From: Minisyncoccota bacterium
GTDB taxonomy: Bacteria; Patescibacteriota; Minisyncoccia; Phycocordibacterales; UBA5272
Reading direction: 5' to 3'
Assembly: GCA_018062965.1 (NCBI GenBank)
Contig: JAGORG010000001.1
Location: forward strand, 7,488 to 71,487
Length of the DNA: 64,000 nucleotides
The notes beneath the pieces are model-generated. The model worked only from the letters and a program-made list of their open reading frames with translations. It did not search any database and was not told where the DNA came from. The translations under genes and the position numbers were made by a program. Numbering within the stretch: the stretch's first letter is position 1; every line of letters starts with the position of its first letter. Below, piece by piece: positions 10,654-33,193 of the stretch.

Positions 10654-10760
10654 TGGCGGAGCGTCTCGTGTTAGAACCGTGGTCGGTTAAGACCTGTAAG
10701 GACAGTTTACTACATTTTAAAATAACTGAATCGACCCGTCTCGAGCACTAGCAAAATGAG
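10654..10760 (-). other. R1: degenerate tRNA-3'-half-like remnant (minus-strand sense ...GGTTCTAACACGAGACGCTCCGCCA) ending in CTCCGCCA immediately before a terminator
   Basis: Resembles T-loop/acceptor/CCA of class II tRNA (compare tRNA-Ser 27237-27324) but no cloverleaf can be drawn; shares GGCGGAG and TTAGAACC blocks with R2. Confidence 0.4.
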
Positions 10761-10828
10761 ACAAAGTGAGACACGAAAAGTACTATTTTAATGTCTCACT
10801 TTAATTACAAAAAGTGACAAAAGTGACA
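10756..10828. repeat. short direct/inverted repeats GTGAGACA x2, TGTCTCAC, GTGACAAAAGTGACAC upstream of serine recombinase 2
   Basis: read directly; candidate recombinase or regulator binding sites. Confidence 0.4.
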
Positions 10829-11005
10829 CTTTTTTCACTATAAAATTACAGTCATCTGTAACTTTTTTTCATACATAATCATACATATCAGACTATATAA
10901 GATTAATCATTATCAATACCTGTAAAGCTTTTTTGTTATCACAATGTCGCTTTTTTTAATTTTGCATAGACTATGCAAGGATTATGGTTCTGTCATTAAT
11001 ATATA

Positions 11006-12325: not shown

Positions 12326-12369
12326 AAATCTGATTAATTATAACTTTACAGATTCGATACAATCTAAAA

Positions 12370-12933: not shown

Positions 12934-12944
12934 AGTAATCTTAC

Positions 12945-13613: not shown

Positions 13614-13685
13614 AATATAATACCATTTTCTAAAAAATATTTGAAATGCACAGGTGCGAAAAATATGATTAATATTTTTCGTAAA

Positions 13686-14639
13686 TTATTTTACATATTT
13701 TTGTAAGAATTTTAGTCCAGTCGCATCAGTATATTTCTCAATATCAAGCTCTCGAGAAAACAAGTCTGCGAGCTTTCTCTTCTCTTCTTGAGACACCTCG
13801 TTTATTTTAGGGATATTAATTGACTGGGGTTTGATATCCTTATATTCCTCAATGAATCTTTTTATTTCTTCTCCTCCATCTGTAAACAAACTTTCATCGA
13901 GTATAGACTGACCATCATAAGAAGCCCTTACTAAAGCGTTAAATACTTGGTCTTCTGGCACTCGAGAGAACGTAGCTATTTTGTTTACCAAAATATCAAT
14001 AAGAACTCTTCCAATATCGTATGTTTTATAATATCCTTCCTGAGCTAAGTGCGTATTGCCTGACCTTTTTAGATACTCATCTAAAACCATGTCAGCAATT
14101 TTCTCAACTAAACCTTCGTTAAAAGCTGTTAACACTGTTTCAAAATCACCACCTTCTTCGCTATATCTCTCTCTGCTTATACCTGAAAATCCCGTAGTAA
14201 CTTTATGTTCACCAACGTCTATGGCTTCCGTTTGCTCATTTTGTTGTGTTATATGTACTTGCTCATGCACTAAAAGTTTAAGGATAAGCAATCTCTTTCT
14301 CATCTTTTCTTTTAAAAGAGGCAGGACAAACTTGTAGTTCACTGGATTAAAACGAAGGAAACTTCTTTCCTTTTCTTCTCCTGATTCATCTGCTTCAAAT
14401 TCCGTTCCCGCACATGCGGCATAATAAAATACGTCATAAAAAAATTCTATATCTTCTCTGCCGACAAACTTCATCTGACTAACATCAAGACCACACTTTC
14501 TGTATATTTCCTCAAATACTCCTCGAAGTAAATCAAAATCAACCTTGTCCAAGTCTTGTTCAATTCTCTCCTTAGAGCCTTCAAAAACAGCTTCTTTTAT
14601 TTTCCCGTGAACTGATTCTTGTGATGGTAGCTTTTCCAT
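13686..14639 (-). CDS. hypothetical protein with HExxH motif (LLVHEQVHITQ), possible Zn-metallopeptidase
   Basis: motif only. Confidence 0.4.
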   Translation of the reverse strand: MEKLPSQESVHGKIKEAVFEGSKERIEQDLDKVDFDLLRGVFEEIYRKCGLDVSQMKFVGREDIEFFYDVFYYAACAGTEFEADESGEEKERSFLRFNPVNYKFVLPLLKEKMRKRLLILKLLVHEQVHITQQNEQTEAIDVGEHKVTTGFSGISRERYSEEGGDFETVLTAFNEGLVEKIADMVLDEYLKRSGNTHLAQEGYYKTYDIGRVLIDILVNKIATFSRVPEDQVFNALVRASYDGQSILDESLFTDGGEEIKRFIEEYKDIKPQSINIPKINEVSQEEKRKLADLFSRELDIEKYTDATGLKFLQKYVK

Positions 14640-14651
14640 AAAAATTAATAC

Positions 14652-16058
14652 TTAACGATCAAGATAATCTTGAACTCTAAATTTTCGTGATCTTAATCTT
14701 TGCGATGCTAAATCAAGATTATCTATAAGGCGGACAAGAGTATGTATATGAGGCTCTGCTTTATCTCCATATGTATCACGAAGTTTCTTACCAAAAGAAA
14801 CCATATCTTGGGCAACATTAGATAAACTGTCATCCAATCTTCCGAGACTATCTACATCCTCACTGAGCCGCGACTCTTGAGACACACCAAACTCTGACAT
14901 CGCTTCTGCAGCTTTATTAATATCTTTTCGCAAAGCTTCATCTAGTTTTTGATTGTCTCTTATTCTAGCTAACGCACTTGCATATTGAGATGCGGCTGAT
15001 TGCTGTAAAAGATAATTTAAACCATCCCTCTCCCTTTCTTCTAGTTTTTGAAGTAATCTTACATTTGACTCAATAACATCTTCAAAAGATTTTTTAATCT
15101 CTGGGCTAAAAACAGGCTCACTTTGTTCTATCTGTTCTAAAGATTCAACCTTTTGGTTCGTTGTATTTTCTTGTAGAACAGCACCTTCGTCTACAGAAGG
15201 AATCCCTACTTCATCCTGTGTGTCCATTGTTGAAGGAACAGCTACTTCAACAGCTTTAGGTGTATCATCTTTCTTTTCTTGAACTTTTTCTGGTTGCTCG
15301 CTTAGCATGTTTTCACCTGCATCTATTCTCGCTAATTCCGCATCTTGTTGTTGTTTTTCTGCGCGTTCTCGAATCTTTTCTTCTGCTGTTTTTAAAAATC
15401 CAGGTTTCTTTTGAAGTATATCTAAGTTAGTTACGCTGTCTTGCACAATAGAAGGATTTGGCTCAACTACCCCTTCTTCAATCTTCTCTTGGTCTTTGGG
15501 TAATTCAAAAACTGAATCGTTTGCAGGCGCCTTATTTATATAACTTGATCTCTCTTCGCTCGCTACAGGTTTAACAACTGAATATTTAGCGTCCAATGCT
15601 TTAATCCTATCAGTTGCTTCATCTTCTGTTTCTAGCCGTAAAGAATCCACTTCGCTAGATGGAGTTAATTTATCTTGCTGATGTGGTTGATTGTTAATTT
15701 CAACACTGCTAGCTTCATTACCAACAGGCTCTACAACGTTTAGTTTTTGTTGGACAGGAATTTTTACGCCATCTTGCTGAGCGACAGCTTTCTTTCCATA
15801 TGTATTGCGTATGAAATCAACAGCGGTCCCCATTTCTTCCATAGATAATCCTGCTTGCTTAGCTTCACCTAGTCTCTTTGCAAAAGAAGGATCATTAGCA
15901 AAATCAACCACACTTGCATTAGTTCCATTTTTTGCCTGAAAATCCCAATAAGAAAATTTGAGATCTTTTTTTAATTGATTAACTAGGGAGTTACTTTCCA
16001 CATGTGAAATAGGATTGTCATTTTTCTTCTCTTGACTAGACATTTCAGGGCTTTTCAT
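14652..16058 (-). CDS. hypothetical acidic, coiled-coil-rich protein (468 aa)
   Basis: E/D/Q-rich, no motif. Confidence 0.45.
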   Translation of the reverse strand: MKSPEMSSQEKKNDNPISHVESNSLVNQLKKDLKFSYWDFQAKNGTNASVVDFANDPSFAKRLGEAKQAGLSMEEMGTAVDFIRNTYGKKAVAQQDGVKIPVQQKLNVVEPVGNEASSVEINNQPHQQDKLTPSSEVDSLRLETEDEATDRIKALDAKYSVVKPVASEERSSYINKAPANDSVFELPKDQEKIEEGVVEPNPSIVQDSVTNLDILQKKPGFLKTAEEKIRERAEKQQQDAELARIDAGENMLSEQPEKVQEKKDDTPKAVEVAVPSTMDTQDEVGIPSVDEGAVLQENTTNQKVESLEQIEQSEPVFSPEIKKSFEDVIESNVRLLQKLEERERDGLNYLLQQSAASQYASALARIRDNQKLDEALRKDINKAAEAMSEFGVSQESRLSEDVDSLGRLDDSLSNVAQDMVSFGKKLRDTYGDKAEPHIHTLVRLIDNLDLASQRLRSRKFRVQDYLDR

Positions 16059-16187
16059 AACAAAATTTTAACATAATTATTATGATAAGGTTACCAACAC
16101 ACTACAACTAGAACGCTCTTGATACTTACATTGATTTACATTACCAATGAAAACGTTTTTATAAATAAGATACCTGCTAAAAAGCAA

Positions 16188-16221
16188 AGCACGAGATATG
16201 TTGTACAACACATCTCGTGCT
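16188..16221 (-). terminator. long near-perfect palindrome AGCACGAGATATGTTGTACAACACATCTCGTGCT followed by T-run on minus strand (3' of R2)
   Basis: 17-bp stem. Confidence 0.6.
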
Positions 16222-16227
16222 AGCTGT

Positions 16228-16325
16228 CAATGGCGGAGGGTGGTAGACGAGATTAGAACCTATTGGGCTATCCCGTCCAATTACTTTTATGTCCCTAGCT
16301 TATCAGCAGAGACAGCGAACATCCA
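16228..16325 (-). other. R2: second tRNA-3'-half-like remnant (minus-strand ...GGTTCTAATCTCGTCTACCACCCTCCGCCA)
   Basis: same organisation as R1 (CTCCGCCA + terminator), about 100 nt between stop of 16326..16934 and the hairpin. Confidence 0.4.
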
Positions 16326-16934
16326 TTAAGATTTGCCATTCGACTTGGCCAATTTGCCCTTGTAGCGCTCTATACGCTTTTCCCAATCTCCACCCCACTT
16401 TTGGGCCAAAGCCGCCTCACAGAGCCGAATAGCGTCCTCTAGGCGGCCTTCTTTCTCCCGGATAATGGCAAGGTCCATATAGCCGACATGGGACGGTAAC
16501 TCTTGGTCACCGTACTCTTTCTTAAAGGCCTCGGCCGCTTCCGCGCTTATGGCTATCTGTTGCTCACATGCCTTGGTCGCCCGGTCCAAAGCGAAACTAT
16601 CCACGTCCCGGAAACGGTAATAAATATCTTTTTTGTTTTGATACAGGAAATGACGGTCGAGGACCGGAGCGCTTGCCTCCAACGCCTCCGCTTTTTCCAA
16701 TAGCTTGTAGGCAATGTTTCGGTCTTGCTCGGTCTTGAGCCACCCGGCCATAGTGGAGAGATAGCCGGTGGCGGAGCCACTCATTGAAAGAATGTCGCCC
16801 TCTACCACTCCACCGGGACCGTACACGGCAAGTATTCTTTTCCTCTCGGTATCACTAAAGACCGTGAGCCACCAATCGGAGAGGCCGTAGTATTTTATTG
16901 CGCCGCTTGGTTTTTTCGCAAAGAAAGAGAACAT
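16326..16934 (-). CDS. hypothetical protein (202 aa), helical/TPR-like
   Basis: ORF, roughly 50% GC. Confidence 0.45.
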   Translation of the reverse strand: MFSFFAKKPSGAIKYYGLSDWWLTVFSDTERKRILAVYGPGGVVEGDILSMSGSATGYLSTMAGWLKTEQDRNIAYKLLEKAEALEASAPVLDRHFLYQNKKDIYYRFRDVDSFALDRATKACEQQIAISAEAAEAFKKEYGDQELPSHVGYMDLAIIREKEGRLEDAIRLCEAALAQKWGGDWEKRIERYKGKLAKSNGKS

Positions 16935-16938
16935 AAAA

Positions 16939-17643
16939 TTAGCGAATAAACTTCACTTGGATACCGACTACTCCATACTTGGCTTCCTCGTCTTTTGAAT
17001 AATATTTGTATATACCCATGAGGTCGTCTTTGTTTATGCCACCAAACATAGTTGCTGGAAACGCGTCAAAGAGTTGAGAAAATGTTGGATAGTGAAATAA
17101 GTTGGTTATCTTAACTCGAATGATTTGCTCCGGGTCGCTCATTGCCGAAAACTCTATTTCGTCGCCGACGTTAAGAAGCTGTCTTTTCTCATCATTCAAG
17201 CGAACCTCAATGGTTTTAGAGCCGTCCTTTATCTTTCCAAAAGGATTGGGTTGGAGTTTCATTTTGTGAACGTAAACATTCCCGGCTTTCCCGTATGCTT
17301 CCATTTCGTATTTATTTTTCCTATATCCATTACGTGCCGTTTCAAGTTGGTATAAAAATGGGTGAATAAGCGGCTCTCTCATACTTTGTGCAACGTGCAC
17401 GAGTTCATGTTCCAAGTCGTTATCCAACGCATTGGGACTTATCAAAACCATATTTCCTAAAGCCATTGCTCGCGCACCTTTTTGATTTGGTAACCACCAA
17501 TACCACCAAAAACTTTTAACGTGAACCACTAATGCAAAAGGTGTATAAGAAAAAGAGAATTGTTTAGGAATGGAAACAAGCGCACCGCAAAAGCCAAGTA
17601 TGGTCCAAGGAAGATTTAAGATAATTGATAAGAATGTCCACAT
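16939..17643 (-). CDS. membrane-anchored HExxH (HELVH) metallopeptidase-like domain fused to C-terminal ASCH (PUA-like) domain
   Basis: LEHELVHVAQ; GKIKDGSKTIEVRLNDEKRQLLNVGDEIEF resembles ASCH GxKxxExR. Confidence 0.45.
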   Translation of the reverse strand: MWTFLSIILNLPWTILGFCGALVSIPKQFSFSYTPFALVVHVKSFWWYWWLPNQKGARAMALGNMVLISPNALDNDLEHELVHVAQSMREPLIHPFLYQLETARNGYRKNKYEMEAYGKAGNVYVHKMKLQPNPFGKIKDGSKTIEVRLNDEKRQLLNVGDEIEFSAMSDPEQIIRVKITNLFHYPTFSQLFDAFPATMFGGINKDDLMGIYKYYSKDEEAKYGVVGIQVKFIR

Positions 17644-17645
17644 GG

Positions 17646-20600
17646 CTAGATATTTCTTGTCCCTCGGCAGTACGGGAACTTTGAACAGCCATAGAACTTA
17701 CCGCGTCGGCCGTTCCTCAATATCATTTTCGCGGAACAGCGAGGGCAATCTACATTCGATAGGACCGGGGCCGGACGCTCGGCTCTTGCGCCGCTTCCGT
17801 GGGATTTACAGTAACGGCAGAAACGGCCGTATCCGGTAACCAAACTGTTGTCCTTAAAGTCCTCGTCCTCTCGTATCTCTTTGCACTTTGGGCATTCCTT
17901 CTTGTCCCCGTTTTGGAGGCCTTCGACTGTTTCTTGGATATTGTCGAGGAACCCATTGCGAGGGCTGTTTCTAAAAAGGTCGCTAATCCGCTCGTCCAAG
18001 GTAGCGATAGGATTTGTTCCGATATTGAACTTGTTTATACGCAAGAACTTATATCCGTAGCTCTCTAACACTTTCTCGCGGTACACGTCTCCCTCGGAAT
18101 AGTAATTCTTGTAGTTGAACTCGTTTACCTCATCAATATTCTTGAAGTGCTCGCGGAAACCGTCGTACTCGATAATAATTTTATGCTCGCGGTGGTTCTC
18201 GTCCTTGTACACCAAGAGGAAATCAACCTTGTAGTTGGCGTGCTGATAGCTAATATCCAACTGCTTTAGATATTTTCCAATCTCGAATTGCGGAATGAAC
18301 TCAATGCTATCTTTATTCTTTTGCCAGAACTCCGTTTGGTAAAACCAATTGAGAACCTCCGGCTCCATTTTCGAGCTTTGGTCAACGTCGGCCGAGGTCC
18401 TTTCCTTCTTGGCTTCTTCCAACACGTTGTAGTAATGACGCAAAGCGTCACCAATCGAGCCGTCGTACTTATCGAGCGGTTTGCTCAAGACAAAGTGCAT
18501 ACATTCTTTTGCACGGCTGAAACCGACGTTGAGACGCTGTACTTTTATCTTTCCGTCTTCCTCGCTATCAACGCTGTTGAGGTCCTTAATGAATACGCCC
18601 CATAGTTTGTCGGAAACCTCATTGGCAACCATTGAATAGAAAATGATGTCGCGTTCCTCGCCTTGGCAAGTATCGAACGTCATTATCTTGAGCTTGAGTT
18701 TGTCGAAATAGTAATCGCGCTCCGGTAGCTTGCTGATTTCGTCAATAAGGATTTTCTGTTGGTTCGTGTGCGGCGTGATAATTCCCACACTCAAACCTTT
18801 GTCGGCCTCACGAAGCGCTTGGAGTTCGGAGATTATTAACTCGATTTCTTTTCTATTGGTGTTTGGTATCAACTCAACTTTTCCGTCGCTCTCGGCAAAA
18901 GAGAACTTAATAACCTCGTCCATTGCCTTGCCGCGTATCTTCATTACCTGCAAGCTGTTTTGATAGAAATACTTGTTGGAGTAAGAAATGATTTCTTTGT
19001 ATCCTCGGAAATGCTTAAGAAGCTGGATATTGTAGTTGCTTATGAACTCGAAGAACTCAAGTATCGAGGTCTTGATGTCGAACTTGGCCAACTTCACTTG
19101 CTTTGCGTCCTCTTGGGAAACCTCACGTCGGAACACTTCCGCCAATGCGTTGAGATACTCTCGGTTTGTTTCCGACCTCGCTTGTGCGGCCTTTATGTTG
19201 CTGAACTGCCTCTTGTCTCCAAGAATAAGAACCTTCTTTGCGCGTATGAGAGCCGGGAACGCTTGCGCGATGCTGACCTGCGAGGCCTCGTCAATTATCA
19301 CCAAGTCGAATATGCCGGCTTCCAACGGTATGTATTCCGCGTAATCTCTAATGCCGGCCAATATGCAAGGGAACGCGTCTTTGAGTTTTGCGAACTGCTC
19401 TTTAGGGAACTGCTTTTTGTCACGGATAATATTTCGCAATGTCTCCGCGTCGTTCTTGTTGTGTTCGTAAAAATCAATGAGGCGTGAATCGAGAAGGTGG
19501 GTTACTTGGGTTGTGACGAGCGTTTCGACTTCCTTTTTGTGCGATGCGTAATTAAGTTTTGGGATACATCCGAAACGAGTTGAAATCGCATTCTTGAGGC
19601 CGGCAAATCTCATGGCCTTCTCAAACTCCATAGACGACATGTCTACGAGCTTATTCTTAAACCACGTCAAAATATTCTTATCCGAAATGCCGGTTTTCTT
19701 GAGTGACTTAGGGTATAGCTCGAAACCCTCCGAGAACTTTTCTACTTGCTCCATGAGCGAACCGGCAAGCTCTTTGCTTTCAGTAACTCCGTGCATGTCC
19801 GCAAGAAGGTCTGTAAGCGTCCCTAGATAATCTCCCTTGATTTCGACAAGGTAATCGCTGTGCTTCCTTATGGCGTTGAGGTGGTCGAAAATCTCAATCG
19901 CATTTCCAATATCCGAAAGCGACTCTTGGACCTTCTCGTATTTGGAGAATGGTAAGAGTGTACGGAAACGAGCGTTGAGCGCTTCAACTTTTGTACCAGC
20001 AAACAAGAAACCGAGCACCGGCAACTTTGCGTCACGACACTCTTTTACAAGCTCTTTTAGTTTTGGCAAATCCTCGTCGCTAAAATGTCCGAGGTTTGAA
20101 ATGGCAGAAAGTTTTGTCTCGTATTTTGCCGACACCTCAATAAGAGCGGCACTTACCGACGAGATTTGAGACAGAAAACCTACAAAGGCCTCTTTGGTTT
20201 TAATGTCCTCAATATCAACACCTAGGAACTTGGCAACATGGATAGCTTCAAGCTGATTTCTAAGGCCAAGGAGAAAAGCTCGCAATTCTTCAAAGTAACC
20301 AATCTCGTACTGGTTGGCTGAAAGCTCATCCACATCAAACAAGAAACTCTCTTTTTCGTAGTAGCTTTCGAGGTCGTAGTAGTCGCGGATTTCCTTTAGG
20401 TCCACGTCGCTGTACGCCACAATCTCGGCCTCAATATCTTCCTTCAAAGAGTTTTGCAACTTTGAAATATTTTCGGTGAGCACGTCGTAATCTTTCTTCA
20501 CCGCTCGGTGGTGAGCTTTGATTTTCTCGATTGTCGCCTTGGAAAGGATTTGGCTATACGTGTTTCCGGTTTTACCGAGACGGAGTATTGGATTTTGGAA

Positions 20601-22190
20601 ACCTTCCTCGTCGAAACGGACCTTATCCATTGTCTCGGTAATTTTGTCCTCGACAACATCAAGCGCTTCTTTCTTATCCGAAAGAACTAAGACGGATTGG
20701 TGCCGGAGTATCGCATCAAAAATGATTGCCGTAATCGTATGGCTCTTACCGGTTCCCGGTGGTCCCTCAACAACCAAATACTTACAGTTATCTTTGCGTA
20801 TGGCTGACAATATTTGTAGCTGTTCGCTGTTCAAGGGAATAGGGCTAGCAAATACGAGCTTGTCCGGTACGTCGGTCCCGTCCCATTCGCTCTCCACCTC
20901 GGGATTAACAGGGTCCGGGTTTTTGTGTATGAAATCTTCTACCAAAAGATTGAACATTTCCGCGAGTAGCCCCGTATCGGAGTTCAATTCCTGCAAGATT
21001 TCTTCGTAGTCGTTTACGAGTGCTTCGTCGGACTTGTCGAATAGGGAGAGATAAAGGGAGTTGGATACGCGCGCGTGTAAGCTCCGTGACAGTTGGGTTT
21101 GGTCGCTTGAAACATCAACCTTTTTGTCCAACTCGAAGTTGTTTACAATCTCGCTCAAAATGCTGTTGAGGAACTCGGGCAAATCGTTTTTGTGTTGTGA
21201 CAAATAGATAATACGCTCGGTAATTGAGCGAAGATTTCCGCGAGTACCTTTTTGGTTGTTGTATTCCTGAACTATGAACTCAAGCGCTCTCTTGTTGATA
21301 TAAACTTGCGAATCGAACTCAATCTTGAATACGTCGTTGTCCCGGCGCACGGTAAAGGGAGTATAGAAAATCGGATACTTAACCTTGTTGAAAGTGATGT
21401 CACAGAAATATAAATAGAAATCTTGCTTATCGAGAATGGCTCTGTTTCGGTCCATTTCAAACACCTCCGCGAAAAGGTCACCCACTTGGAAGCTCTCGAA
21501 AAAACCTAGAATGCTTGTCTTGATACTCTCGATGTCGAAAGCTGTTTTGAGTTCCTTGGCCGCGTTTACTTTCTCGTCGGCAATAAGATTTTTGAGAAGT
21601 TCGGAAACCTTGTTCTCAAGCATTCTTAGAAGAACCTCGGTAAGTTCTTCCTCCATTAGATAAATGTCGTTCTCGTCGCCGATGTCGAGGTTTTCGATTG
21701 ATTTCTCAATACTTCCAACGAACGGCAGTACCAATCCTTGTTTAACAATGCCGGCGGTATTTTCGAGAGAAACCGAAAGTCCTTTCTCGTATTCTTTTTT
21801 GTATAGGGCGGCCGCCTTTTCGATTTCCTCCGCTATCAATGCAAGAGTTTCCTTAACTTGTGTCGGCGATATTTTGCCGACTTGCAACGTAATCAAGTCG
21901 AGCAGGTTCTTCGGGAGGTTTGATTTGTAGACCCCTTTTTGGAGGGTGCTTAGAGCGTCTTTATCAAATGACTTTTTAATGAGCGAATGTATGTCTTTAG
22001 AAAAAGAGGGGTATTTGGCAAGATTTACGCCAATCAAAAGATTGTCCGGGTTGCGGAGCTTAACGGAGCGGCGCGGGTTTTTCCTCTTATGGAAATCCGT
22101 TTCGAGGAAGTCCATAAAATACTTCGCAACTTCCTTGACGAAAAGAAGATTGCCGGTGACCTGTTCTTTTTTAGTGGTTTCGGTAGGCAT
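17646..22190 (-). CDS. 1514-aa Upf1/DNA2-like SF1 helicase fused to DUF559/Vsr-like endonuclease domain and C-terminal topoisomerase-type C4 zinc ribbons; long N-terminal region of unknown function
   Basis: Walker A VVEGPPGTGKSHTI, Walker B LVIIDEASQV, motif TFDTCQGEERDIIF, then YKVDFLLVY...IIIEYDGFREH, then CPKCK...CRYCK...CPRCS...CSKFPYC. Confidence 0.75.
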   Translation of the reverse strand: MPTETTKKEQVTGNLLFVKEVAKYFMDFLETDFHKRKNPRRSVKLRNPDNLLIGVNLAKYPSFSKDIHSLIKKSFDKDALSTLQKGVYKSNLPKNLLDLITLQVGKISPTQVKETLALIAEEIEKAAALYKKEYEKGLSVSLENTAGIVKQGLVLPFVGSIEKSIENLDIGDENDIYLMEEELTEVLLRMLENKVSELLKNLIADEKVNAAKELKTAFDIESIKTSILGFFESFQVGDLFAEVFEMDRNRAILDKQDFYLYFCDITFNKVKYPIFYTPFTVRRDNDVFKIEFDSQVYINKRALEFIVQEYNNQKGTRGNLRSITERIIYLSQHKNDLPEFLNSILSEIVNNFELDKKVDVSSDQTQLSRSLHARVSNSLYLSLFDKSDEALVNDYEEILQELNSDTGLLAEMFNLLVEDFIHKNPDPVNPEVESEWDGTDVPDKLVFASPIPLNSEQLQILSAIRKDNCKYLVVEGPPGTGKSHTITAIIFDAILRHQSVLVLSDKKEALDVVEDKITETMDKVRFDEEGFQNPILRLGKTGNTYSQILSKATIEKIKAHHRAVKKDYDVLTENISKLQNSLKEDIEAEIVAYSDVDLKEIRDYYDLESYYEKESFLFDVDELSANQYEIGYFEELRAFLLGLRNQLEAIHVAKFLGVDIEDIKTKEAFVGFLSQISSVSAALIEVSAKYETKLSAISNLGHFSDEDLPKLKELVKECRDAKLPVLGFLFAGTKVEALNARFRTLLPFSKYEKVQESLSDIGNAIEIFDHLNAIRKHSDYLVEIKGDYLGTLTDLLADMHGVTESKELAGSLMEQVEKFSEGFELYPKSLKKTGISDKNILTWFKNKLVDMSSMEFEKAMRFAGLKNAISTRFGCIPKLNYASHKKEVETLVTTQVTHLLDSRLIDFYEHNKNDAETLRNIIRDKKQFPKEQFAKLKDAFPCILAGIRDYAEYIPLEAGIFDLVIIDEASQVSIAQAFPALIRAKKVLILGDKRQFSNIKAAQARSETNREYLNALAEVFRREVSQEDAKQVKLAKFDIKTSILEFFEFISNYNIQLLKHFRGYKEIISYSNKYFYQNSLQVMKIRGKAMDEVIKFSFAESDGKVELIPNTNRKEIELIISELQALREADKGLSVGIITPHTNQQKILIDEISKLPERDYYFDKLKLKIMTFDTCQGEERDIIFYSMVANEVSDKLWGVFIKDLNSVDSEEDGKIKVQRLNVGFSRAKECMHFVLSKPLDKYDGSIGDALRHYYNVLEEAKKERTSADVDQSSKMEPEVLNWFYQTEFWQKNKDSIEFIPQFEIGKYLKQLDISYQHANYKVDFLLVYKDENHREHKIIIEYDGFREHFKNIDEVNEFNYKNYYSEGDVYREKVLESYGYKFLRINKFNIGTNPIATLDERISDLFRNSPRNGFLDNIQETVEGLQNGDKKECPKCKEIREDEDFKDNSLVTGYGRFCRYCKSHGSGARAERPAPVLSNVDCPRCSAKMILRNGRRGKFYGCSKFPYCRGTRNI

Positions 22191-22193
22191 TTT

Positions 22194-22376
22194 TTATCTC
22201 CGTTTGCGAAGGTTGGAGTTTTCCTTAAGGAACTTTTGCAAGTCCGCTTCCTTAATGCGCCAGTAACCGACTTTTGTGGCCATTAAGCGCTTGCTATGGA
22301 TATACCGAAACACCGAACGCTCACTCACTCGCAAGCGTGTCGCAACCTCTCTTAGTGTAAGCAGTTTCTCTCCCAT
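22194..22376 (-). CDS. excisionase/AlpA/MerR-type HTH DNA-binding protein (60 aa)
   Basis: LTLREVATRLRVSERSVFRYIHSKRL...GYWRIKEADLQKF. Confidence 0.65.
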   Translation of the reverse strand: MGEKLLTLREVATRLRVSERSVFRYIHSKRLMATKVGYWRIKEADLQKFLKENSNLRKRR

Positions 22377-22404
22377 AAGGTTATTACAATTCTATTATTT
22401 CCAT

Positions 22405-22445
22405 TTCAAGTTGTCAAAATGTGTCAAGGTCGTTAAAATGGATAT
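22405..22445. promoter_or_regulatory. divergent promoter/operator region with two TGTCAA repeats 10 bp apart (TTGTCAAAATGTGTCAAGG)
   Basis: between divergently transcribed xis-like gene and 22446 operon. Confidence 0.4.
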
Positions 22446-23162
22446 GTGGGGTCAAATATGAAAATGACGATGAAAGTAAGTAAGGGTGAGTATAGAAAAA
22501 TCCTCTCCGCCTTCTCCGATAAGGCGGCTCTTGATATTCGACATTTATGTTCTGTTCTTCTTAAAGCAGAGTTAGAAGACCGGCTCGATATAGAGCGAAA
22601 TATTTTGGATATAGAAGATATTGCGGCAAGCGCTATACCGGAGAACCAACTAAAATCAATCTACGAAAGAATGACGGGCGATTTGGGGATTTTAAAAACA
22701 GCGACACCGGTTACCAAGAAAATGCTGAAACTAGATTTTAGCGGCTTGGAAATCAATACGGAAAACGCTATTACGCTTTCGCAAGTCGCCGACGAAATGG
22801 GCCGGCCGGCACATCCGCTTTGGAACAGAAAATCTAAGAGTGAACAGGAAGAAACTCCCGATGAAGATTTGTGGCTCGATGAGGAAAACGGCTTAATCCA
22901 TTTTCGAGGCAGAAAATGCAAGTTGGGTATCGGAGATATTGATTACTTTTTAATACAAACTTTACTTAAGTCCCCAATAGGTAAGCGAGTTGCCGAAGAC
23001 GATATTTTGGAAGCAGATGATTTTGTTCAACGCACCAGAAAAAGCAAAAAGTCACGACGTCTATATGACGCTCGTCGTCGTCTAAATAACAAAATGGCTC
23101 TTGATTTAGGGATAACAGAGTTTGTCGGTTTCGAGAAATCTTACTTTTGGAGAAATCAGTAG
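22446..23162 (+). CDS. hypothetical protein (238 aa)
   Basis: ORF. Confidence 0.45.
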   Translation: MGSNMKMTMKVSKGEYRKILSAFSDKAALDIRHLCSVLLKAELEDRLDIERNILDIEDIAASAIPENQLKSIYERMTGDLGILKTATPVTKKMLKLDFSGLEINTENAITLSQVADEMGRPAHPLWNRKSKSEQEETPDEDLWLDEENGLIHFRGRKCKLGIGDIDYFLIQTLLKSPIGKRVAEDDILEADDFVQRTRKSKKSRRLYDARRRLNNKMALDLGITEFVGFEKSYFWRNQ

Positions 23163-23242
23163 AGCAATAATTATTGGCTCGATGTGAGTCAAGTTGGTTC
23201 TCATGCTCCTTAGCTACGCTACACACGTAGCTTTTTTGCTAT

Positions 23243-23503
23243 GTGATTATGACGATGAAAAAGGACAATTCGGTTAGCTTCTATCGCACGTCGGACCTCG
23301 CGTTGACGTGTGCTCTTTGCATTGTCGGCTTTATTGCCGAGGACGTGGAAGCTATCGGTCCTACAAGGTCGGTCTTCGTCTTCAAGAGTTCGGAAGAACT
23401 AAGCACAGCAATAAAACGCTACTGGATGAGCGAGCTTCGAGTGGAACCGCAAGCATATTTCAATATGCTTAAAGTCCTTAAAGCTCGGCTCTATCAGCGT
23501 TGA
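23243..23503 (+). CDS. hypothetical protein (86 aa)
   Basis: ORF. Confidence 0.35.
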   Translation: MIMTMKKDNSVSFYRTSDLALTCALCIVGFIAEDVEAIGPTRSVFVFKSSEELSTAIKRYWMSELRVEPQAYFNMLKVLKARLYQR

Positions 23504-23504
23504 G

Positions 23505-23741
23505 ATGCTTTCGCCCGAAGCATTGCAGGAGTTCAAGGATATTTGGAGGGATGAGTTCCATGAGGAAATCCCTGACCATTTTGCTGTTGAGCAAGCAATC
23601 AATCTCTTGGCGATGTTCAACGTAATCTACCGACCTCTCCAACGAGAGTGGCTAAATGACTATGAAAATAAAGAGCATAGGAGAAATCCTCAAGGACCGA
23701 GACAAGAACCAAACCCCGGACCTAAGAGGACTTCCGATTAG
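23505..23741 (+). CDS. hypothetical protein (78 aa)
   Basis: ORF; overlaps next ORF by 86 nt. Confidence 0.3.
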   Translation: MLSPEALQEFKDIWRDEFHEEIPDHFAVEQAINLLAMFNVIYRPLQREWLNDYENKEHRRNPQGPRQEPNPGPKRTSD

Positions 23742-24165
23742 GCCACGAAATAAGCAAAACCGTTTCTACATAGATAACGAGTTTCTCGAAAGAGGTTATG
23801 TAGCAAGGTTCAAGAAGTTCCCACTCATTCCCGTATACGCCGTCTTGTGTAAGTACGCCAACGCACGAACGCAAAAATGTTGGCCGGCGTGCGAAACGAT
23901 AATAAAAGAAACCGGAATAAAGAACCGAAATACTGTTTGGGCTGTCATTACTCTCTTGGAGAAATTAAGCATCATCTATACAGAGCGTTCGAGCGGTAGA
24001 ACCTCGAATAGATACTGGATGCTCGATAGCAAATATTGGAAAGAGCCGAACAGTATCACGGTTGATACGGTTAGGGATTGGGTCAACAAGAACCGTATCA
24101 AAAAGAAACCAACCGTATCAAATGAGGAAACGAACAGTATTCCCGGTGATACGCGAAGTCATTAA
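23656..24165 (+). CDS. HTH protein resembling phage/plasmid replication-initiator or DnaD-like N-terminal domain
   Basis: YAVLCKYANARTQKCWPACETIIKETGIKNRNTVWAVITLLEKLSII; true start uncertain. Confidence 0.4.
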   Translation: MTMKIKSIGEILKDRDKNQTPDLRGLPIRPRNKQNRFYIDNEFLERGYVARFKKFPLIPVYAVLCKYANARTQKCWPACETIIKETGIKNRNTVWAVITLLEKLSIIYTERSSGRTSNRYWMLDSKYWKEPNSITVDTVRDWVNKNRIKKKPTVSNEETNSIPGDTRSH

Positions 24166-24197
24166 ATCTTAGAAATCAAATAAATATATAAATCACT

Positions 24198-24545
24198 ATG
24201 ACAATGAAAAAAGAAAAACGATTGCCAATTGGTTACGTGCTTGGTGAGAAAAAGCAGGTTGTTCTATCAAACGACCAAGAAGTTATTACGGCGCTCTTTG
24301 GTTACTTTGCTCGAATGCATAGCGAAGCACATAGTCGAGCCACCAAACGAGGAATTGCTGAGGCAAAGAAGCGATGCGAAACATCCGAAGCTAATGAAGT
24401 CATTGCTTCAGCTAGAGGCAAGGGACATGTTGCTCACCGCTTTCTTAAAAAGCCATTGGCCTTAGACGGAAAGAAACTATTTGTGAATAAATCCAGCTTT
24501 CTAAAGGTACATCGACTAACGAGAGCACCGCGCGCGAGTGTCTAA
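24198..24545 (+). CDS. hypothetical protein (115 aa)
   Basis: ORF. Confidence 0.35.
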   Translation: MTMKKEKRLPIGYVLGEKKQVVLSNDQEVITALFGYFARMHSEAHSRATKRGIAEAKKRCETSEANEVIASARGKGHVAHRFLKKPLALDGKKLFVNKSSFLKVHRLTRAPRASV

Positions 24546-24587
24546 ACCCAATTATTCAAATATTGGCCCCACCTATACCTCGAAGCT

Positions 24588-24926
24588 ATGAAATGCAAAC
24601 ATGTAAAACCAAATAAAAGTAAGTGCAAAGCCAACGCAATGGTAGGTAAAGATTGTTGCTTCATGCACAACCCGGATACACGTAAGAAGCTCCTTGAAGC
24701 ATCACGCAAAGGTGGCAAGTCGAATAAGCGTGAACGCCGCAAACTACGGATACTCAAAACACGTTTAAAGACCCCCGAGGGTATCCGCAAACTCCTTGAA
24801 GAAACGGTGGTCCAACTTAATGACGGAAAGATTGATGAGAAGACCGCAAACACCGTTGCATACCTGTCCTCCAACCTAATGAAAGCCCTAGAACTCAAGC
24901 ACGATAAGGACTATTGGGAGCTATAA
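24588..24926 (+). CDS. hypothetical basic protein with N-terminal Cys/His cluster
   Basis: ORF. Confidence 0.35.
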   Translation: MKCKHVKPNKSKCKANAMVGKDCCFMHNPDTRKKLLEASRKGGKSNKRERRKLRILKTRLKTPEGIRKLLEETVVQLNDGKIDEKTANTVAYLSSNLMKALELKHDKDYWEL

Positions 24927-24959
24927 AAATGCTTCCAAAGCACCCCCTAAAAATGTTAT

Positions 24960-25170
24960 GATTTATATGCTACCCGTTAGAACAAATACCGCACGAGGTT
25001 TTCGTCTTTTTTGGCGCCGTTTATGGGCTGAAAGGGGCAGTCAAGACCTCCGTAAACGGTGCCTCGTGCATTCGTTCTTGCGGGTAGCAGGCAACTTGGC
25101 TGTCCCTTTTTGCGTTGTCCCGCGAGAGAGAGCTGTTGCCTCTTATAAGAATTATTTAGCTACGAATAAT
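24960..25170 (+). other. GC-rich, highly structured non-coding segment (nested inverted repeats GCACGAGG/CCTCGTGC, GGCGCCGTTTA/TAAACGGTGCC, CTTGCGGG/CCCGCGAG, GGCAAC/GTTGCC); candidate ncRNA or regulatory leader
   Basis: read directly; the track ORF 24958.. is coding only from the ATG at 25174. Confidence 0.35.
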
Positions 25171-25173
25171 TTT

Positions 25174-25611
25174 ATGGAGGTACAAAAGAAAAAGTATAGT
25201 AAGGGTTTGATAGTGTTCGTGTCTGTCTGTGTGTTTTTCCTAGTGGTTGTTATCGGTTTAAGTTCCGGGTCCGGCGATAAGCAGGCGGAGCAAAAAACGG
25301 AAGCGGTCGCAACCGAACAAACCGACGCCTCAAAGAAAGAAGCACAGGAAGGGCTTGAAGCACTCTTGGCTCTCTCAAAGCAAAGCGGTATCGTCGCGTC
25401 GTACGAGTTTTCCGATACTGCAAATGTTGTTTACGTGACCGATGTTTGGTATTCGCTCGATGTTCCTTTCAAGAAGGACCTCGTTGGAAAAATCGCATCA
25501 CTCAAAGAAGCCGCAACCGGCTACCACACGTTCCAAGTTATGAATGTAAAGTCGAATGAGAAAGTGGCAGAGGTTACCTCGTTTAGCGGCTCGATAGAGA
25601 TTTATAAATAA
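25174..25611 (+). CDS. membrane-anchored hypothetical protein (146 aa; MEVQKKKYSKGLIVFVSVCVFFLVVVIG...)
   Basis: start moved to in-frame ATG preceding the TM helix. Confidence 0.45.
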   Translation: MEVQKKKYSKGLIVFVSVCVFFLVVVIGLSSGSGDKQAEQKTEAVATEQTDASKKEAQEGLEALLALSKQSGIVASYEFSDTANVVYVTDVWYSLDVPFKKDLVGKIASLKEAATGYHTFQVMNVKSNEKVAEVTSFSGSIEIYK

Positions 25612-25616
25612 AACCC

Positions 25617-27248
25617 ATGAAGAATACTGATACTCAAATCAAATACGGAAACTACAACCGCAAAAGTAGTGAAGACCGTGAGCGGCAGATTTTGAGTATC
25701 GGTTCCCAAATTGATTGGGCGAAAGAAGCGGCGGAAAAGCACGCCGTTAAAATCCTCAAGTCATACCAAGAGGAAAAGTCGGCAGAGGCACCCTATCAAC
25801 GTGCCGTCTTCGACCAAATGGTTAAAGATATTCATGCCGGAATAATCAACGCACTTATTTGTTGGAAGTTGGACCGTCTCGCTCGTAATCCCGAAGAAGC
25901 CGGCATCATTCTTGGAATGTTAAAGCGCGGTGAGATAAAGCACATCATCACCAACGAGCGAGAATACCGACCTGAAGACAACGCCATTATCTCCTATGTG
26001 GACTTTGGAATGGCGGACCAGTATTCGCGTGATTTAAGCAAGAACGTTAAGCGAGGTCTAAAAACAAAGCTCAATATGGGTTGGTATCCGAGCCGTGCTC
26101 CATTGGGATATTTGAATACTAAAATTGCGGAGAAAGGTGAGAACACAATCGTAAATGACCCAGAGCGTTTTGAGACAGTAAAGCGCATGTGGCAAACAAT
26201 GCTTACCGGGAGGTATACGGCTCCCCAGATATTGCAGATAGTGAATAACGAATGGAAGTTTAAGACACGAACAACTAAGAAGTTCGTCGGGAAGCCCCTT
26301 TGCCGAGCAACTATCTATAAGATTTTCAATAATCGTTTTTATTGCGGTTTTTACGAGTTCCCGAAAGGAAGCGGAGAATGGTACCGAGGCAAGCACGAAC
26401 CAATGGTTACGGAGGACGAGTTCGAGCAGGTCCAAATGTTGCTCGGCAATAAGAAACGTCCGCGCCCTTTGACGCGTCGGTTCGCTTTTACCGGCCTAAT
26501 GCGTTGCGGAAATTGTGGCGCAATGATTACGGCAGAGGAAAAGATAAAAAGGCAAAAGAATGGAAACGTACACCAGTACATTTATTATCGTTGCACAAAG
26601 CGCATAGACGAGAAGTGTCCCGAGAAAACGGTTGAATTAAAAGAGCTTACCGGGCAGATTGATTTGCTTATCCGTGGCCTCACTATTTCCGACAAGTTTG
26701 CGGCTTGGGCAATCCGTTACCTCCACGAGGTCCGACAAAACGAAGCGAAAAGCCATGAGGAAATGTTCACCAACAAACAGAAACGACTTACCGACGTTGC
26801 AAAGCAAATGAACAATCTCTTACTAAAATATACGTCCTCCGAAAACTCCACCGGTGACCTCATTAACGATACGGAATATAAGACATTAAAGCTCGCTCTT
26901 ACGAGAGAAAAATCTGCGCTTGAAGGTGACTTACAAACACAGAGCAAAGAAATGGAGAGGTGGATTGAGTTGAGCGAACGGACTTTCCACTTTGCCCGTT
27001 ACGCAAGCACTTGGTTTGAAAAAGGCGACCTAGAAACTAAAAGAGCCATTTTTGCCTGTTTAGGTTCGGACCTCATCGTAAAAACCCAAAAGCTCAACAT
27101 ACAACTGCATAAACCGTTCCAATTCATTTTCGATAACCTTGAGGAAATAGAAAAAGAATTGGTTACGGTTAGAACCTCAGAAAGTGAAGTATTTATGGGC
27201 CAGAAAGTATATTTGGACCCAAGTTGTCTTACGTTGCGGAGGAGGTGA
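25617..27248 (+). CDS. large serine recombinase (integrase) paralog 3 (543 aa)
   Basis: YNRKSSEDRERQILSIGSQ ... LICWKLDRLARNP; zinc ribbon CGNCGA...YYRCTK; last 12 nt overlap tRNA-Ser 3' end. Confidence 0.85.
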   Translation: MKNTDTQIKYGNYNRKSSEDRERQILSIGSQIDWAKEAAEKHAVKILKSYQEEKSAEAPYQRAVFDQMVKDIHAGIINALICWKLDRLARNPEEAGIILGMLKRGEIKHIITNEREYRPEDNAIISYVDFGMADQYSRDLSKNVKRGLKTKLNMGWYPSRAPLGYLNTKIAEKGENTIVNDPERFETVKRMWQTMLTGRYTAPQILQIVNNEWKFKTRTTKKFVGKPLCRATIYKIFNNRFYCGFYEFPKGSGEWYRGKHEPMVTEDEFEQVQMLLGNKKRPRPLTRRFAFTGLMRCGNCGAMITAEEKIKRQKNGNVHQYIYYRCTKRIDEKCPEKTVELKELTGQIDLLIRGLTISDKFAAWAIRYLHEVRQNEAKSHEEMFTNKQKRLTDVAKQMNNLLLKYTSSENSTGDLINDTEYKTLKLALTREKSALEGDLQTQSKEMERWIELSERTFHFARYASTWFEKGDLETKRAIFACLGSDLIVKTQKLNIQLHKPFQFIFDNLEEIEKELVTVRTSESEVFMGQKVYLDPSCLTLRRR

Positions 27249-27374: not shown

Positions 27375-27830
27375 CTACACCGCATAGTGTTCACTGTAAT
27401 GACAGTTGGGGCATAGGAGTTCTAGATTTTCAAACGAATTATCTTTTCTGTTCCTATTTTTATGGTGAACATGCAGCACCTGATGAATTGCATATAAACA
27501 CCGTTCACATTGAGGTCCACGTAAATCAAAAAGCTGTTTTTTAATTGAACGGATTCCTTTTGCTTTGTCGTTTGGACCTTGCATAAGATAATGAATACCT
27601 GCACGATTTTTGTTAGCACATACCCTGCTACACGTTTTCTTATTGAACCCAGAAAGAATAAGTTTTCCGCACACAATACAAGAAACTTCTTTACGGCAAG
27701 AAATACCATAACAAGCACTACTACAGAACAGTTTGTTTTTCGTAGCTTTTATTTCTGAAGGTCTTTTGTAGATTGACCTGTTACACACGCAACATGCTGT
27801 ATTTGGCTTTCTTATGTATAACTCAGTCAC
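27375..27830 (-). CDS. HNH endonuclease with multiple CxxC zinc knuckles
   Basis: HVHHKNRNRKDNSFENLELLCPNCH. Confidence 0.7.
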   Translation of the reverse strand: MTELYIRKPNTACCVCNRSIYKRPSEIKATKNKLFCSSACYGISCRKEVSCIVCGKLILSGFNKKTCSRVCANKNRAGIHYLMQGPNDKAKGIRSIKKQLFDLRGPQCERCLYAIHQVLHVHHKNRNRKDNSFENLELLCPNCHYSEHYAV

Positions 27831-27899: not shown

Positions 27900-27971
27900 G
27901 CTCTCGTAGTTCAATGGATAGAATTCAAGTTTGCGGTACTTGCGATGCAGGTTCGATTCCTGCCGAGGGCA
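27900..27971 (+). tRNA. tRNA-Arg, anticodon read as GCG (unusual)
   Basis: GCTCTCG/CGAGGGC acceptor, anticodon stem CAAGT/ACTTG loop TTGCGGT, T-arm GCAGG TTCGATT CCTGC. Confidence 0.65.
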
Positions 27972-27975
27972 CATG

Positions 27976-28015
27976 AAAACAAAACAACCACTTTAAAAAG
28001 TGGTTGTTTTGTTTT
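27976..28015 (+). terminator. terminator AAAACAAAACAACCACTTT-aaaa-AGTGGTTGTTTTGTTTT
   Basis: long palindrome directly after tRNA-Arg. Confidence 0.7.
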
Positions 28016-28021
28016 CAAAAA

Positions 28022-28135
28022 CTCTGCCCTCGACAGGAATCGAACCGAAGGTCCACATTTTTAATAAACAAAGTGAATACTAAAAATGTAGAATCTCGAC
28101 CAAAGGGAGAGGCTGTTCCTGCAAAAAGGGCGCAC
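28022..28135. repeat. tRNA-associated module copy A: inverted copy of tRNA-Arg 3' end (28022-28046) + conserved 66-nt hairpin core (28047-28112) + imperfect direct copy of tRNA 3' end (28113-28135)
   Basis: ggttcgattcctgYcgagggca shared with 27950-27971 in reverse complement; core about 80% identical to 32559-32623. Confidence 0.6.
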
Positions 28136-28251
28136 TATAGAGAACCCTCGTACAAATCACATTTTAAGATATTCTCAGCCGACAAATACTTCTTGATGTA
28201 ACCTAACTTTGAATACAAACAATAAACCGACCACGCGGGTCGGTTTATTGT

Positions 28252-32442: not shown

Positions 32443-32515
32443 GCCCCTATAGCTCAGTTGGTAGAGCAGCGGCCTTTTAAGCCGACGGTCGCAGGTTCGA
32501 TCCCTGCTGGGGGCA
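32443..32515 (+). tRNA. tRNA-Lys (anticodon TTT)
   Basis: GCCCCTA/TGGGGGC acceptor, D GCTC AGTTGGTA GAGC, loop CTTTTAA, T-arm GCAGG TTCGATC CCTGC. Confidence 0.85.
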
Positions 32516-32540
32516 CAAAATAAGCGAAGCGTTTTTGATA

Positions 32541-32641
32541 CCCAGCAGGGATCGAACCGAAGGTCCATATTTTTAAGAAACGAAGTGACTATAAAAATAT
32601 ATGATCTCGACTGAAAGGAGAGGCGGACCTGCTGGGGGCAC
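32541..32641. repeat. tRNA-associated module copy B: perfect 18-nt inverted copy of tRNA-Lys 3' end (32541-32558) + conserved 65-nt hairpin core (32559-32623) + direct copy of tRNA 3' end (32624-32641)
   Basis: cccagcagggatcgaacc = reverse complement of 32494-32511; cctgctgggggcac repeated directly. Confidence 0.65.
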
Positions 32642-32659
32642 TCAGCACTAAAAACACCT

Positions 32660-33184
32660 ATGAAAACCTTCAAAAATATTTATGACGAGGACACACTTGA
32701 GAATGAAGCTAAACCAAGCAGTGAATATACTCTACGACCAACAGTAAAGGCTATCGTTATCAACAACGAAAATAACATTGCACTACTAAAAGCTCGCGGA
32801 CACTACTTGCTCCCTGGTGGAGGCATAGAGACTGGCGAGTCTGCTATAGATGCGCTACGAAGAGAGCTGATGGAAGAGATTGGTTGCAATATTGATAACA
32901 TCAAAGAACTTGGTATTTCGAACCAATTTAGAAAAAAGCATATGGTTCACTACGAAGTAGTATTCTTTAGTGCAAACGTTGCTGGTGAAAAAGGAAACCT
33001 AACAACTACCCAAGAAGACGAGCTACGAGATGTTGAGTTGTTGTGGTTTAACAAAGAAAAAGTCTTTACACTTCTAAAGTCTCAGATAGATACACAAGAT
33101 GAAAATGAATACTCATTTTATTTTAATTCCCGCTCTCACTTTGGAGCATTTGAGGAATACATCACAAATTCACAAGATAGGTAA
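32660..33184 (+). CDS. NUDIX hydrolase
   Basis: Nudix box GGGIETGESAIDALRRELMEEIG. Confidence 0.8.
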   Translation: MKTFKNIYDEDTLENEAKPSSEYTLRPTVKAIVINNENNIALLKARGHYLLPGGGIETGESAIDALRRELMEEIGCNIDNIKELGISNQFRKKHMVHYEVVFFSANVAGEKGNLTTTQEDELRDVELLWFNKEKVFTLLKSQIDTQDENEYSFYFNSRSHFGAFEEYITNSQDR

Positions 33185-33193
33185 AATAAAAGT

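Follow-up and report, generated by a model that had tools for sequence, protein, structure and literature searches.

Short non-coding units that stand behind tRNA genes in an ultra-small bacterium of the CPR/Paceibacteria type, and in its relatives, appear to form a family of miniature mobile elements, targeted to tRNA genes, that has not been described before; literature searches found no paper describing tRNA-linked units of this kind. Each unit is approx. 100–170 nt long and, read in the sense of the tRNA, is arranged in the order D0, T, I, C and D. D0, the last 19 nt or so of the tRNA itself, begins at C56 in the T loop and ends at C74; the position of T is taken by a bidirectional terminator-like hairpin or, in some units, by a spacer of 24–27 nt; I repeats, as reverse complement, the T loop and the 3' strand of the T stem, usually together with the 3' strand of the acceptor; C is a folded core; and D is a direct copy of D0, of 8–20 nt, that was found behind every core. 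Strains differ in the presence of these units, one of them is flanked by a perfect direct repeat of the tRNA 3' end, units with different cores are stacked behind single tRNA genes, and the cores have been kept by selection on a fold that exists on one strand only.

Three modules in the window and their relatives

The window, i.e., the whole stretch of 64 kb that was analysed, has S20, RuvA, a Mur ligase, Fpg, NUDIX and PolA among its gene neighbours, and the homologues of its RuvA are labelled Parcubacteria, Nomurabacteria or Paceibacterota. Syntenic loci were collected through identical and homologous RuvA proteins, and comprise loci from the same species (L003–L009 and L021), from species with approx. 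70–77% RuvA identity (L010–L038) and from species with approx. 65% RuvA identity (L072–L077).

Copy A is located behind the tRNA-Arg(gcg) gene (27900–27972, identified by ARAGORN and by Rfam tRNA matches); this gene and all the module features of the window given below are on the plus strand. Repeat analysis placed D0 of this tRNA, its last 19 nt from C56 in the T loop to C74, at 27954–27972. It is followed by T, a perfect bidirectional terminator-like hairpin of 21 bp (27974–28017, an inverted repeat that is 100% complementary), and by I (28025–28046), which inverted-repeat analysis identified as an inverted copy of the T loop and of the 3' strands of the T stem and the acceptor of tRNA-Arg, complementary to 27950–27971 at 21 of 22 nt; D0, T and I together form one long interrupted palindrome. 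The core (28047–28112) is of the AT type, as defined by the consensus fold of ten copies and its compensatory pairs. It includes a junction strand, AACCGAA, that overlaps the end of I (about 28043–28049), the P2 hairpin (about 28051–28094, with an A/T stem in which 28055–28063 pairs with 28081–28089) and the P3 hairpin (28095–28111). D (28113–28135) is, by its sequence, a decayed direct copy of the tRNA-Arg 3' end (gttcctgc-aaaaa-gggcgcac), and an intact D stands at the equivalent position in L011, L013 and L018. The covariance model R2 matches 28024–28131 with 109 bits. The flank behind D (28136–28227) is a remnant with homology to a Peptidase_M15_4 gene, first to its 5' region and, from 28206 on, to its last codons; this M15 peptidase gene has been deleted in the window and is present behind tRNA-Arg in the sister strains L003–L008. 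T of copy A was also found in L005, in an allele without the core. Only one open reading frame of at least 40 aa runs over copy A (28004–28201, plus strand, 65 aa, TTG start), and it is a mechanical call; the other frames of this size that overlap a module lie mostly outside it.

The same layout was seen behind tRNA-Lys(ttt) (32443–32516, ARAGORN and Rfam tRNA matches, with D0 placed at its 3' end by repeat analysis). In this module, copy B, the tRNA is followed by a spacer, X (aaaataagcgaagcgttttt..., 32517–32540), that recurs in the insert at tRNA-Arg(tct) of L011, there with a different core of type 3. I (32541–32558) is a perfect inverted copy of the tRNA-Lys 3' part (18/18), the AT-type core, recognized by its matches to the other cores and by the consensus fold, extends from 32559 to 32623, and D (32628–32641) is a perfect direct copy of the last 14 nt of the tRNA (14/14); model R2 matches 32536–32641 with 108 bits. 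A NUDIX gene segment (32642–33187) that is present in the window and absent in the sister strain L021 begins directly 3' of this D. Each of the core halves of copies A and B has exactly two matches in the window, against 0.2 and 0.02 in shuffled sequences. The coordinates and matches that the initial annotation had given for copy A, i.e., the tRNA-Arg gene, the inverted copy with 21 of 22 nt, the 66-nt core and the decayed direct copy, were all correct, and its report of a recurrence at tRNA-Lys was borne out by copy B.

A third, diverged module, absent from that annotation, was found behind tRNA-Leu(gag) (6323–6407, ARAGORN and Rfam tRNA matches), at about 6410–6670. A terminator-like hairpin in the position of T (6410–6450) is followed by a module of the GC type (6468–6597), which model R1 matches with 74 bits (E = 5e-15) and which consists of the H1 hairpin with a CTGC loop (6468–6489), an inverted copy of the T arm (6490–6502), a core with an extra hairpin and the H2 hairpin (to about 6581), and a decayed direct copy (about 6581–6594). 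Behind it lies a second, partial unit (6600–6669) that contains the type-4 core motif (cacgagcggcggccggcga...ttgtcggaaag), as seen by comparison with the tRNA-Ser module of L074, and that closes with another direct copy, likewise decayed, of the tRNA-Leu end (about 6658–6669, a direct-repeat match at +251–263). Across the 64-kb window, models R1 and R2 detect three copies only, those at tRNA-Arg, tRNA-Lys and tRNA-Leu.

When the search was extended to related CPR assemblies, further copies of the core were found, and these are also located beside tRNA genes. In the window and approx. 360 kb of related loci (about 430 kb in all), 29 of the 32 listed matches to R1 and R2 lie 3' of a called tRNA gene and on its strand, first units at 0–65 nt from the tRNA and second units of arrays at about 211 nt. 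Two of the three exceptions follow a tRNA-Arg that is masked by N, and the other lies at the edge of a locus, beside a tRNA-Ser-like end. The host tRNAs are Arg(gcg), Arg(tct), Lys(ttt), Lys(ctt), Ser(tga), Asn(gtt), Leu(gag) and Cys(gca). Scans with core patterns found the units in four species of a genome contig collection and in three metagenome contigs; the same patterns gave chance matches only in the viral contigs scanned, and there was no match in a phage database. In L072 (GCA_003518045.1) the hairpin centres behind tRNA genes are runs of N, while L073 and L074 have these sites intact; such palindromes may be lost systematically from assemblies or stored copies.

Core types, inverted copy and the single-strand fold

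At least four core types can be distinguished: the AT type of copies A and B, the GC type, type 3 and type 4. The sequence of the core is conserved between species and between tRNA hosts, and the AT-type core was found with Arg, Lys and Asn flanks. Units of the GC type have an extra 5' hairpin, H1, with a conserved CTGC loop; it is inserted between the acceptor and T parts of I, at the position from which a tRNA would extend its D and anticodon arms. Behind tRNA-Cys of L077 (459–537 and downstream, minus strand), the position of the terminator is occupied by a short hairpin; since this hairpin shares the CTGC loop of H1, H1 and T may be interchangeable or related.

The initial annotation had described the flanks as locus-derived and the core as conserved. 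The flanks indeed differ with the tRNA and are not identical between copies. For D the description holds strictly; for I it holds usually, and fails in the insert at tRNA-Arg(tct) of L011. I usually fits the local tRNA, including species-specific variants of the acceptor (GAGGGC, GAGAGC and CAAGGG), and in L073 and L074 D0, T and the acceptor part of I form a continuous perfect palindrome of 30–32 paired positions, even where D has decayed. In the L011 insert, I matches the local tRNA in the T loop only and pairs with D over no more than approx. 6 bp. This insert is the exception to the pairing of I with D, which covers 6–19 bp in the AT-type units. Decay of D or I has often destroyed the acceptor-like helix in units that retain their core. 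D stops exactly where the tRNA does (CAC) and often has its own terminator behind it.

The stems of the core covary strongly, and the covariation grew as copies were added, in agreement with the covarying structured core that had been proposed from copies A and B. In nine GC-type units, 95.3% of the cells in H1 (9 bp) and H2 (14 bp) are paired, as compared with 81% in shuffled sequences and 33–48% in slid controls, and compensatory changes were found in 15 of the 26 pairs. In the tRNA-sense strand these helices contain 24 G.U and no A.C cells, and one of the G.U pairs is invariant in all nine units. The fold is thus formed by the tRNA-sense strand and not by the minus strand. For the AT type, the consensus fold of ten units is a three-way junction. 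P1 is the helix between I and D; P2 consists of GGUCC, an A/U hairpin and GGAUC, with a G.U pair kept in nine of ten units and with apical pairs that covary; and P3 has the form CUC-GA-CY-AAA-RG-GA-GAG, with a pair that switches from C-G to U-A (four units with C-G, five with U-A and one with U.G). Compensatory change in at least three helices, together with wobble pairs of one strand, shows long-term selection on a single-strand fold, which exists on the plus, tRNA-sense strand only.

These folds modify three details of the initial annotation. The outer GGTC/GACC pairing that had been drawn around the A/T hairpin is not the best-supported structure, given the three-way junction obtained from ten copies. 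The sequence AAGGGAGAGG at the end of the core, which had been taken as similar to a ribosome-binding site, is the 3' strand of P3, a helix backed by the compensatory switch between C-G and U-A. The sigma70-like promoter proposed on the minus strand, with a transcript pointing towards the tRNA, was not flagged by a consensus promoter scan in copy A or in copy B, and the fold lies on the opposite strand. The same scan found no conserved promoter between T and I.

In Rfam, whose families include ribozymes, Y RNA, tmRNA and omega-RNA, only the tRNAs reach threshold, and permissive scans give generic hairpin matches. Several identities for the folded region were considered and rejected. A tRNA or tRNA-like gene on the minus strand lacks a T stem, is negative with both ARAGORN and Rfam, and is at odds with the wobble pairs, which favour the other strand. 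A tmRNA or permuted tRNA was likewise dropped. C/D-box guides, hammerheads and other ribozymes have no Rfam match either, and the junction strands do not fit them. A primer-binding site of the retroviral type is contradicted by I, which copies the gene and not the mature end that bears CCA. Finally, the differences between I and the complement of the tRNA are G-to-A only, which could have pointed to a minus-strand RNA; this was contradicted by formal counts of pairs, and the pattern is read as decay or mutational bias.

Insertion polymorphism, arrays and gene flux beside tRNA genes

The clearest view of an insertion comes from L010 and L011, which belong to the same species, since they encode an identical RuvA protein. 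In L010, tRNA-Arg(tct) is an empty site and runs straight into its trailer. In L011, an insert of 101 nt, formed by a spacer, I and a type-3 core, is located between perfect 19-nt repeats (CGATTCCACTCCGGGGCAC) that start in the T loop, and the old trailer stands after the second repeat; the ends of the insert share no inverted repeat. The statement in the initial annotation that the module does not look like a classical att duplication must therefore be revised, as D behaves as the displaced 3' end of the tRNA; its alternative suggestion of a miniature mobile element fits the polymorphism and the arrays described below.

Tandem arrays of two or three units with different cores were found at tRNA-Arg of L011, at tRNA-Lys of L030 and L031, at L015, where three cores stand in a row, and at tRNA-Cys of L077. 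The array of L011 reads tRNA-Arg, T1, I1, C(AT), D, T2, I2, C(GC), D, and that of L030 reads tRNA-Lys, T0, I, C(GC), D, T1, I, C(AT-like), D. In both of them, each D is followed by what is apparently the terminator or trailer that stood behind the tRNA before the next insertion. Judged by this order of parts, the arrays look like the result of serial insertion, with the newest unit adjoining the tRNA.

T, I and C have also been reassorted. At the tRNA-Arg(gcg) site, L005 has T and I without a core, L004 and L006 have another T, an I that bears H1 and a GC-type core, and the window combines an AT-type core with the loss of the neighbouring M15 peptidase gene; L010, L011 and L018 share the same T and I and have different cores. 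An earlier model, drawn from a comparison of L005 with L004 and the window, had the core enter the inverted copy at its T loop and duplicate 7–8 nt (ATCGAAC). It became unneeded given L011 and the arrays; it is possible for the tRNA-Arg(gcg) site itself. Of the tRNA-Lys sites, those of the window, L012, L021, L022, L030 and L074 have units, and those of L010, L011, L013 and L076 have none. Between L010 and L012, T at tRNA-Lys has been replaced by 495 nt and there is no D at the right border, so not every polymorphism is a simple insertion; homologous recombination that exchanged alleles could account for some of the strain differences.

The surroundings of the target tRNA genes are variable as well. 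Gene-sized indels begin at or just behind D, as in the NUDIX segment (32642–33187) and the M15 peptidase remnant (28136–28227) of the window; in other species the genes behind D encode Fic, TrmB, endonuclease V, PG_binding, DUF559 or DUF6804 proteins, and such genes often have their own TTGACA/TATAAT promoter right after D. The orientation of tRNA-Arg(gcg), its module and its cargo with respect to S20 and RuvA in the species of the window is opposite to that in L010–L013, L017 and L022, and tRNA-Lys is flipped between L011 and L010 or L012. Upstream of copy A, the window carries an island of 16.7 kb (10563–27236) that is absent from the sister strains L005 and L006 and has a large serine recombinase gene at each end (11006–12325 and 25617–27248), the second of which shares about 13 nt with the 3' end of tRNA-Ser(tga). 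Where the island is missing, tRNA-Ser has the opposite orientation and lies 30 nt upstream of tRNA-Arg. Nothing was found that links this island to the units. A gene for an HNH endonuclease of 151 aa (27375–27830, minus strand) lies between tRNA-Ser and tRNA-Arg and travels with the inverted tRNA-Ser, being present in L003, L004, L008 and L013 and absent in L005 and L006. A different allele of tRNA-Arg(tct), about 82% identical, is found in L012 (1748–1822) and L018 (5173–5245); in its 3' half (TTGCAGGTTCGATTCCTGCCGAGGGCAC) it is identical to tRNA-Arg(gcg), its 5' acceptor strand has changed to match, and it may have originated by recombination between tRNA genes at the segment that the units target.

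Possible explanations and comparison with known systems

We give roughly even chances to the explanation that the units are miniature (approx. 100–170 bp), non-coding and non-autonomous insertion elements whose target is the 3' part of tRNA genes. An incoming unit would bring T, which now trails the tRNA, I, which is complementary to the tRNA 3' part, and the folded core; the tRNA would be left intact, with a copy of its last 14–19 nt displaced to the far side as D. Such a displacement would fit site-specific integration with an identity block that starts in the T loop. I would thus travel with the element, and D would be generated or retained as the displaced copy of the target; repeated insertion would stack units, with the newest one beside the tRNA. 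The recombinase would be encoded elsewhere and act in trans; no recombinase gene was linked to any unit, and the neighbouring genes, which vary, include none. In the assemblies, which do not show the direction of change or circular junctions, no excised or circular form was seen. A strand-specific covarying fold is unexpected of a double-stranded attachment site, which points to a folded single-strand substrate or to an RNA. In the first case, I, C and D would fold on the tRNA-sense single strand, with a stem of I and D that mimics the target duplex and is capped by the core, and would act in cis as the substrate of recombination, by analogy with CTX attP and integron attC. However, I and D of the L011 insert pair over so few positions that either the folded I:D site is not obligatory or this copy arose differently. 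After insertion D would decay, and selection, or a templated correction of the palindrome, might keep the acceptor part of I matched to the living tRNA or make it match.

The fold would also suit a gene for a small structured RNA, or an RNA cut from the 3' trailer of the tRNA, transcribed in the tRNA sense. The helix of I and D would then copy the stack of acceptor and T stem, so that RNase P, RNase Z and the CCA-adding enzyme could excise the RNA, the core would carry the function, e.g., binding of a protein or acting as a decoy for enzymes or toxins directed to tRNA 3' ends, and mobility would be that of a cassette carrying an RNA gene. The strand of the fold, its invariant G.U pairs and tandem G.A motif, the end of D exactly at CAC, often before a terminator of its own, the core sequence kept across species and tRNA hosts, and the place of H1 where the D and anticodon arms would emerge all speak for an RNA. 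On the other hand, most units have a strong terminator before I, which argues against routine sense transcription of I, C and D and favours a role of the fold at the DNA level, as does the lack of a promoter conserved between T and I. The acceptor-like helix is frequently missing from units that keep the core. A presence that varies between strains of one species, together with mixed-core arrays, would be unusual in a host RNA gene, and Rfam gave no match; on balance an RNA gene is somewhat unlikely. Quite unlikely is the proposal that the units are inert scars, i.e., leftovers from the vicinity of attL or attR of larger islands or prophages that integrate at tRNA genes and have lost their interior, in which the inverted copy would come from growth of a palindrome by template switching at the terminator hairpin, and the core would be no more than the conserved arm region of the att site of one island family. 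The 3' ends of tRNA genes are hot spots of gene flux here (Fic, TrmB, EndoV, PG_binding, M15 peptidase, NUDIX and DUF6804 genes are variable), the 16.7-kb island with its two large serine recombinases abuts tRNA-Ser in the window, the palindromes of D0, T and I in L073 and L074 are continuous and perfect, and D and I decay in older units. Yet compensatory evolution of at least three helices with strand-specific wobble is unlike a double-stranded arm site, about 45 loci contained no cargo between T and I that would represent a larger autonomous relative, and the L011 insert is a complete unit of 101 nt with perfect repeats and not a product of deletion.

The tRNA-derived segments could also be taken as addresses. 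A self-targeting miniature element, whose own folded RNA or single-stranded DNA reads the tRNA gene by pairing, I with one strand and D with the other, and recruits a host or trans-acting enzyme, is decidedly improbable; if it were true, one scaffold would colonise many tRNA genes, always rebuilding the tRNA, and would constitute a nucleic-acid-guided integration system of only about 100 nt. In a related and very improbable scheme, the core and the tRNA-derived segments would be a nucleic-acid guide in which I and D pair with the two strands of the target and direct an enzyme in trans, after the manner of bridge-RNA (IS110) or TnpB/omega-RNA systems. C followed by D, a scaffold and then 19 nt, is reminiscent of a 3' guide, the two segments I and D are directed to opposite strands of a single site, and the flanks vary with the target around a constant scaffold. 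Nevertheless, no IS110, TnpB or IscB-like gene lies beside any unit, I and D cover the same bases instead of adjacent half-sites, and D is more simply a displaced copy of the target.

If the miniature insertion elements proposed above are indeed mobile, they would be among the smallest site-specific insertion elements known, in which a non-coding unit colonises essential tRNA genes harmlessly by means of a replacement 3' end and a terminator. The units mark the boundary of fast gene turnover beside tRNAs in otherwise minimal CPR genomes and may serve as markers or handles for gene gain in organisms that are beyond present manipulation. Their conserved fold is a concrete substrate for finding the responsible recombinase; if transcribed, they would represent a new class of tRNA-mimicking RNA.

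Among known systems, the units share with MITEs and REP-like elements (Correia, RUP and the PATEs of IS200/IS605) a small size, the lack of coding capacity, an abundance of hairpins, strain-variable presence and, presumably, movement in trans. In contrast with these elements, they have no fixed terminal inverted repeats, leave a target copy of 14–19 nt instead of a duplication of 2–10 bp, are strictly targeted to tRNA 3' ends and are low in copy number per genome region. An identity as a MITE was rejected, since the two ends of the L011 insert have no inverted repeat in common, 19 nt are duplicated, and I and D vary with the tRNA. A PATE of IS200/IS605, with subterminal hairpins and insertion 3' of a motif of 4–5 nt, would account for the hairpins, but it leaves no target duplication, which the 19-nt direct repeat contradicts; neither a Y1 transposase nor TnpB was found in the annotated parts of the window. 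Targeting of GTTC/GAAC as in IS91 is suggestive without explaining the 19-nt repeat, and staggered integration like that of casposons was discarded for the absence of terminal inverted repeats.

The attP site of the CTX phage is a folded single strand in which two inverted dif-like sites are about 90 nt apart. Like this site and integron attC, the units have inverted target-like copies separated by a structured spacer of 55–90 nt, a strand-specific fold with wobble pairs and bulges, and arrays, and the inverted pair ends up at one end of the insert, beside the displaced target copy. Paired inverted sites of the CTX or IMEX kind are present in the AT-type units, and the L011 insert at tRNA-Arg(tct), a recent copy, differs in having no such I:D pairing. 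The target also differs: it is the T loop to 3' end of a tRNA gene, and not attI or the dif site on which host XerCD acts, and the units contain neither a phage genome nor a cassette reading frame. By eye only, the T-loop motif ATCGAAC/GTTCGAT agrees with the attC boxes (RYYYAAC...GTTRRRY) at six of seven positions; no intI was seen, and the units are tied to tRNAs and not to cassette arrays.

The block from the T loop to the 3' end of tRNA genes is used as attachment site by islands and prophages with tyrosine integrases, and CIMEs are deleted, non-autonomous forms of these. The units resemble them in inserting in the tRNA 3' part, restoring the gene and supplying a new trailing sequence, in the direct repeat of approx. 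19 nt that starts in the T loop, and in the tandem build-up at one tRNA. A direct repeat of the tRNA 3' segment flanks the insert of L011 and the tRNA is intact when compared with L010, and empty and filled alleles both exist in the assemblies (L005; L010 and L011). Unlike islands and CIMEs, the units measure only 100–170 bp and contain no integrase, no other recombinase and no gene of any kind, and one core family serves many different tRNAs; unlike double-stranded att sites, they have an inverted copy of the target and a covarying single-strand fold. The att-type repeat and the stacking are thus already known from tRNA-integrating elements, whereas the size, the lack of genes, the inverted target copy and the single-strand fold set these units apart from them.
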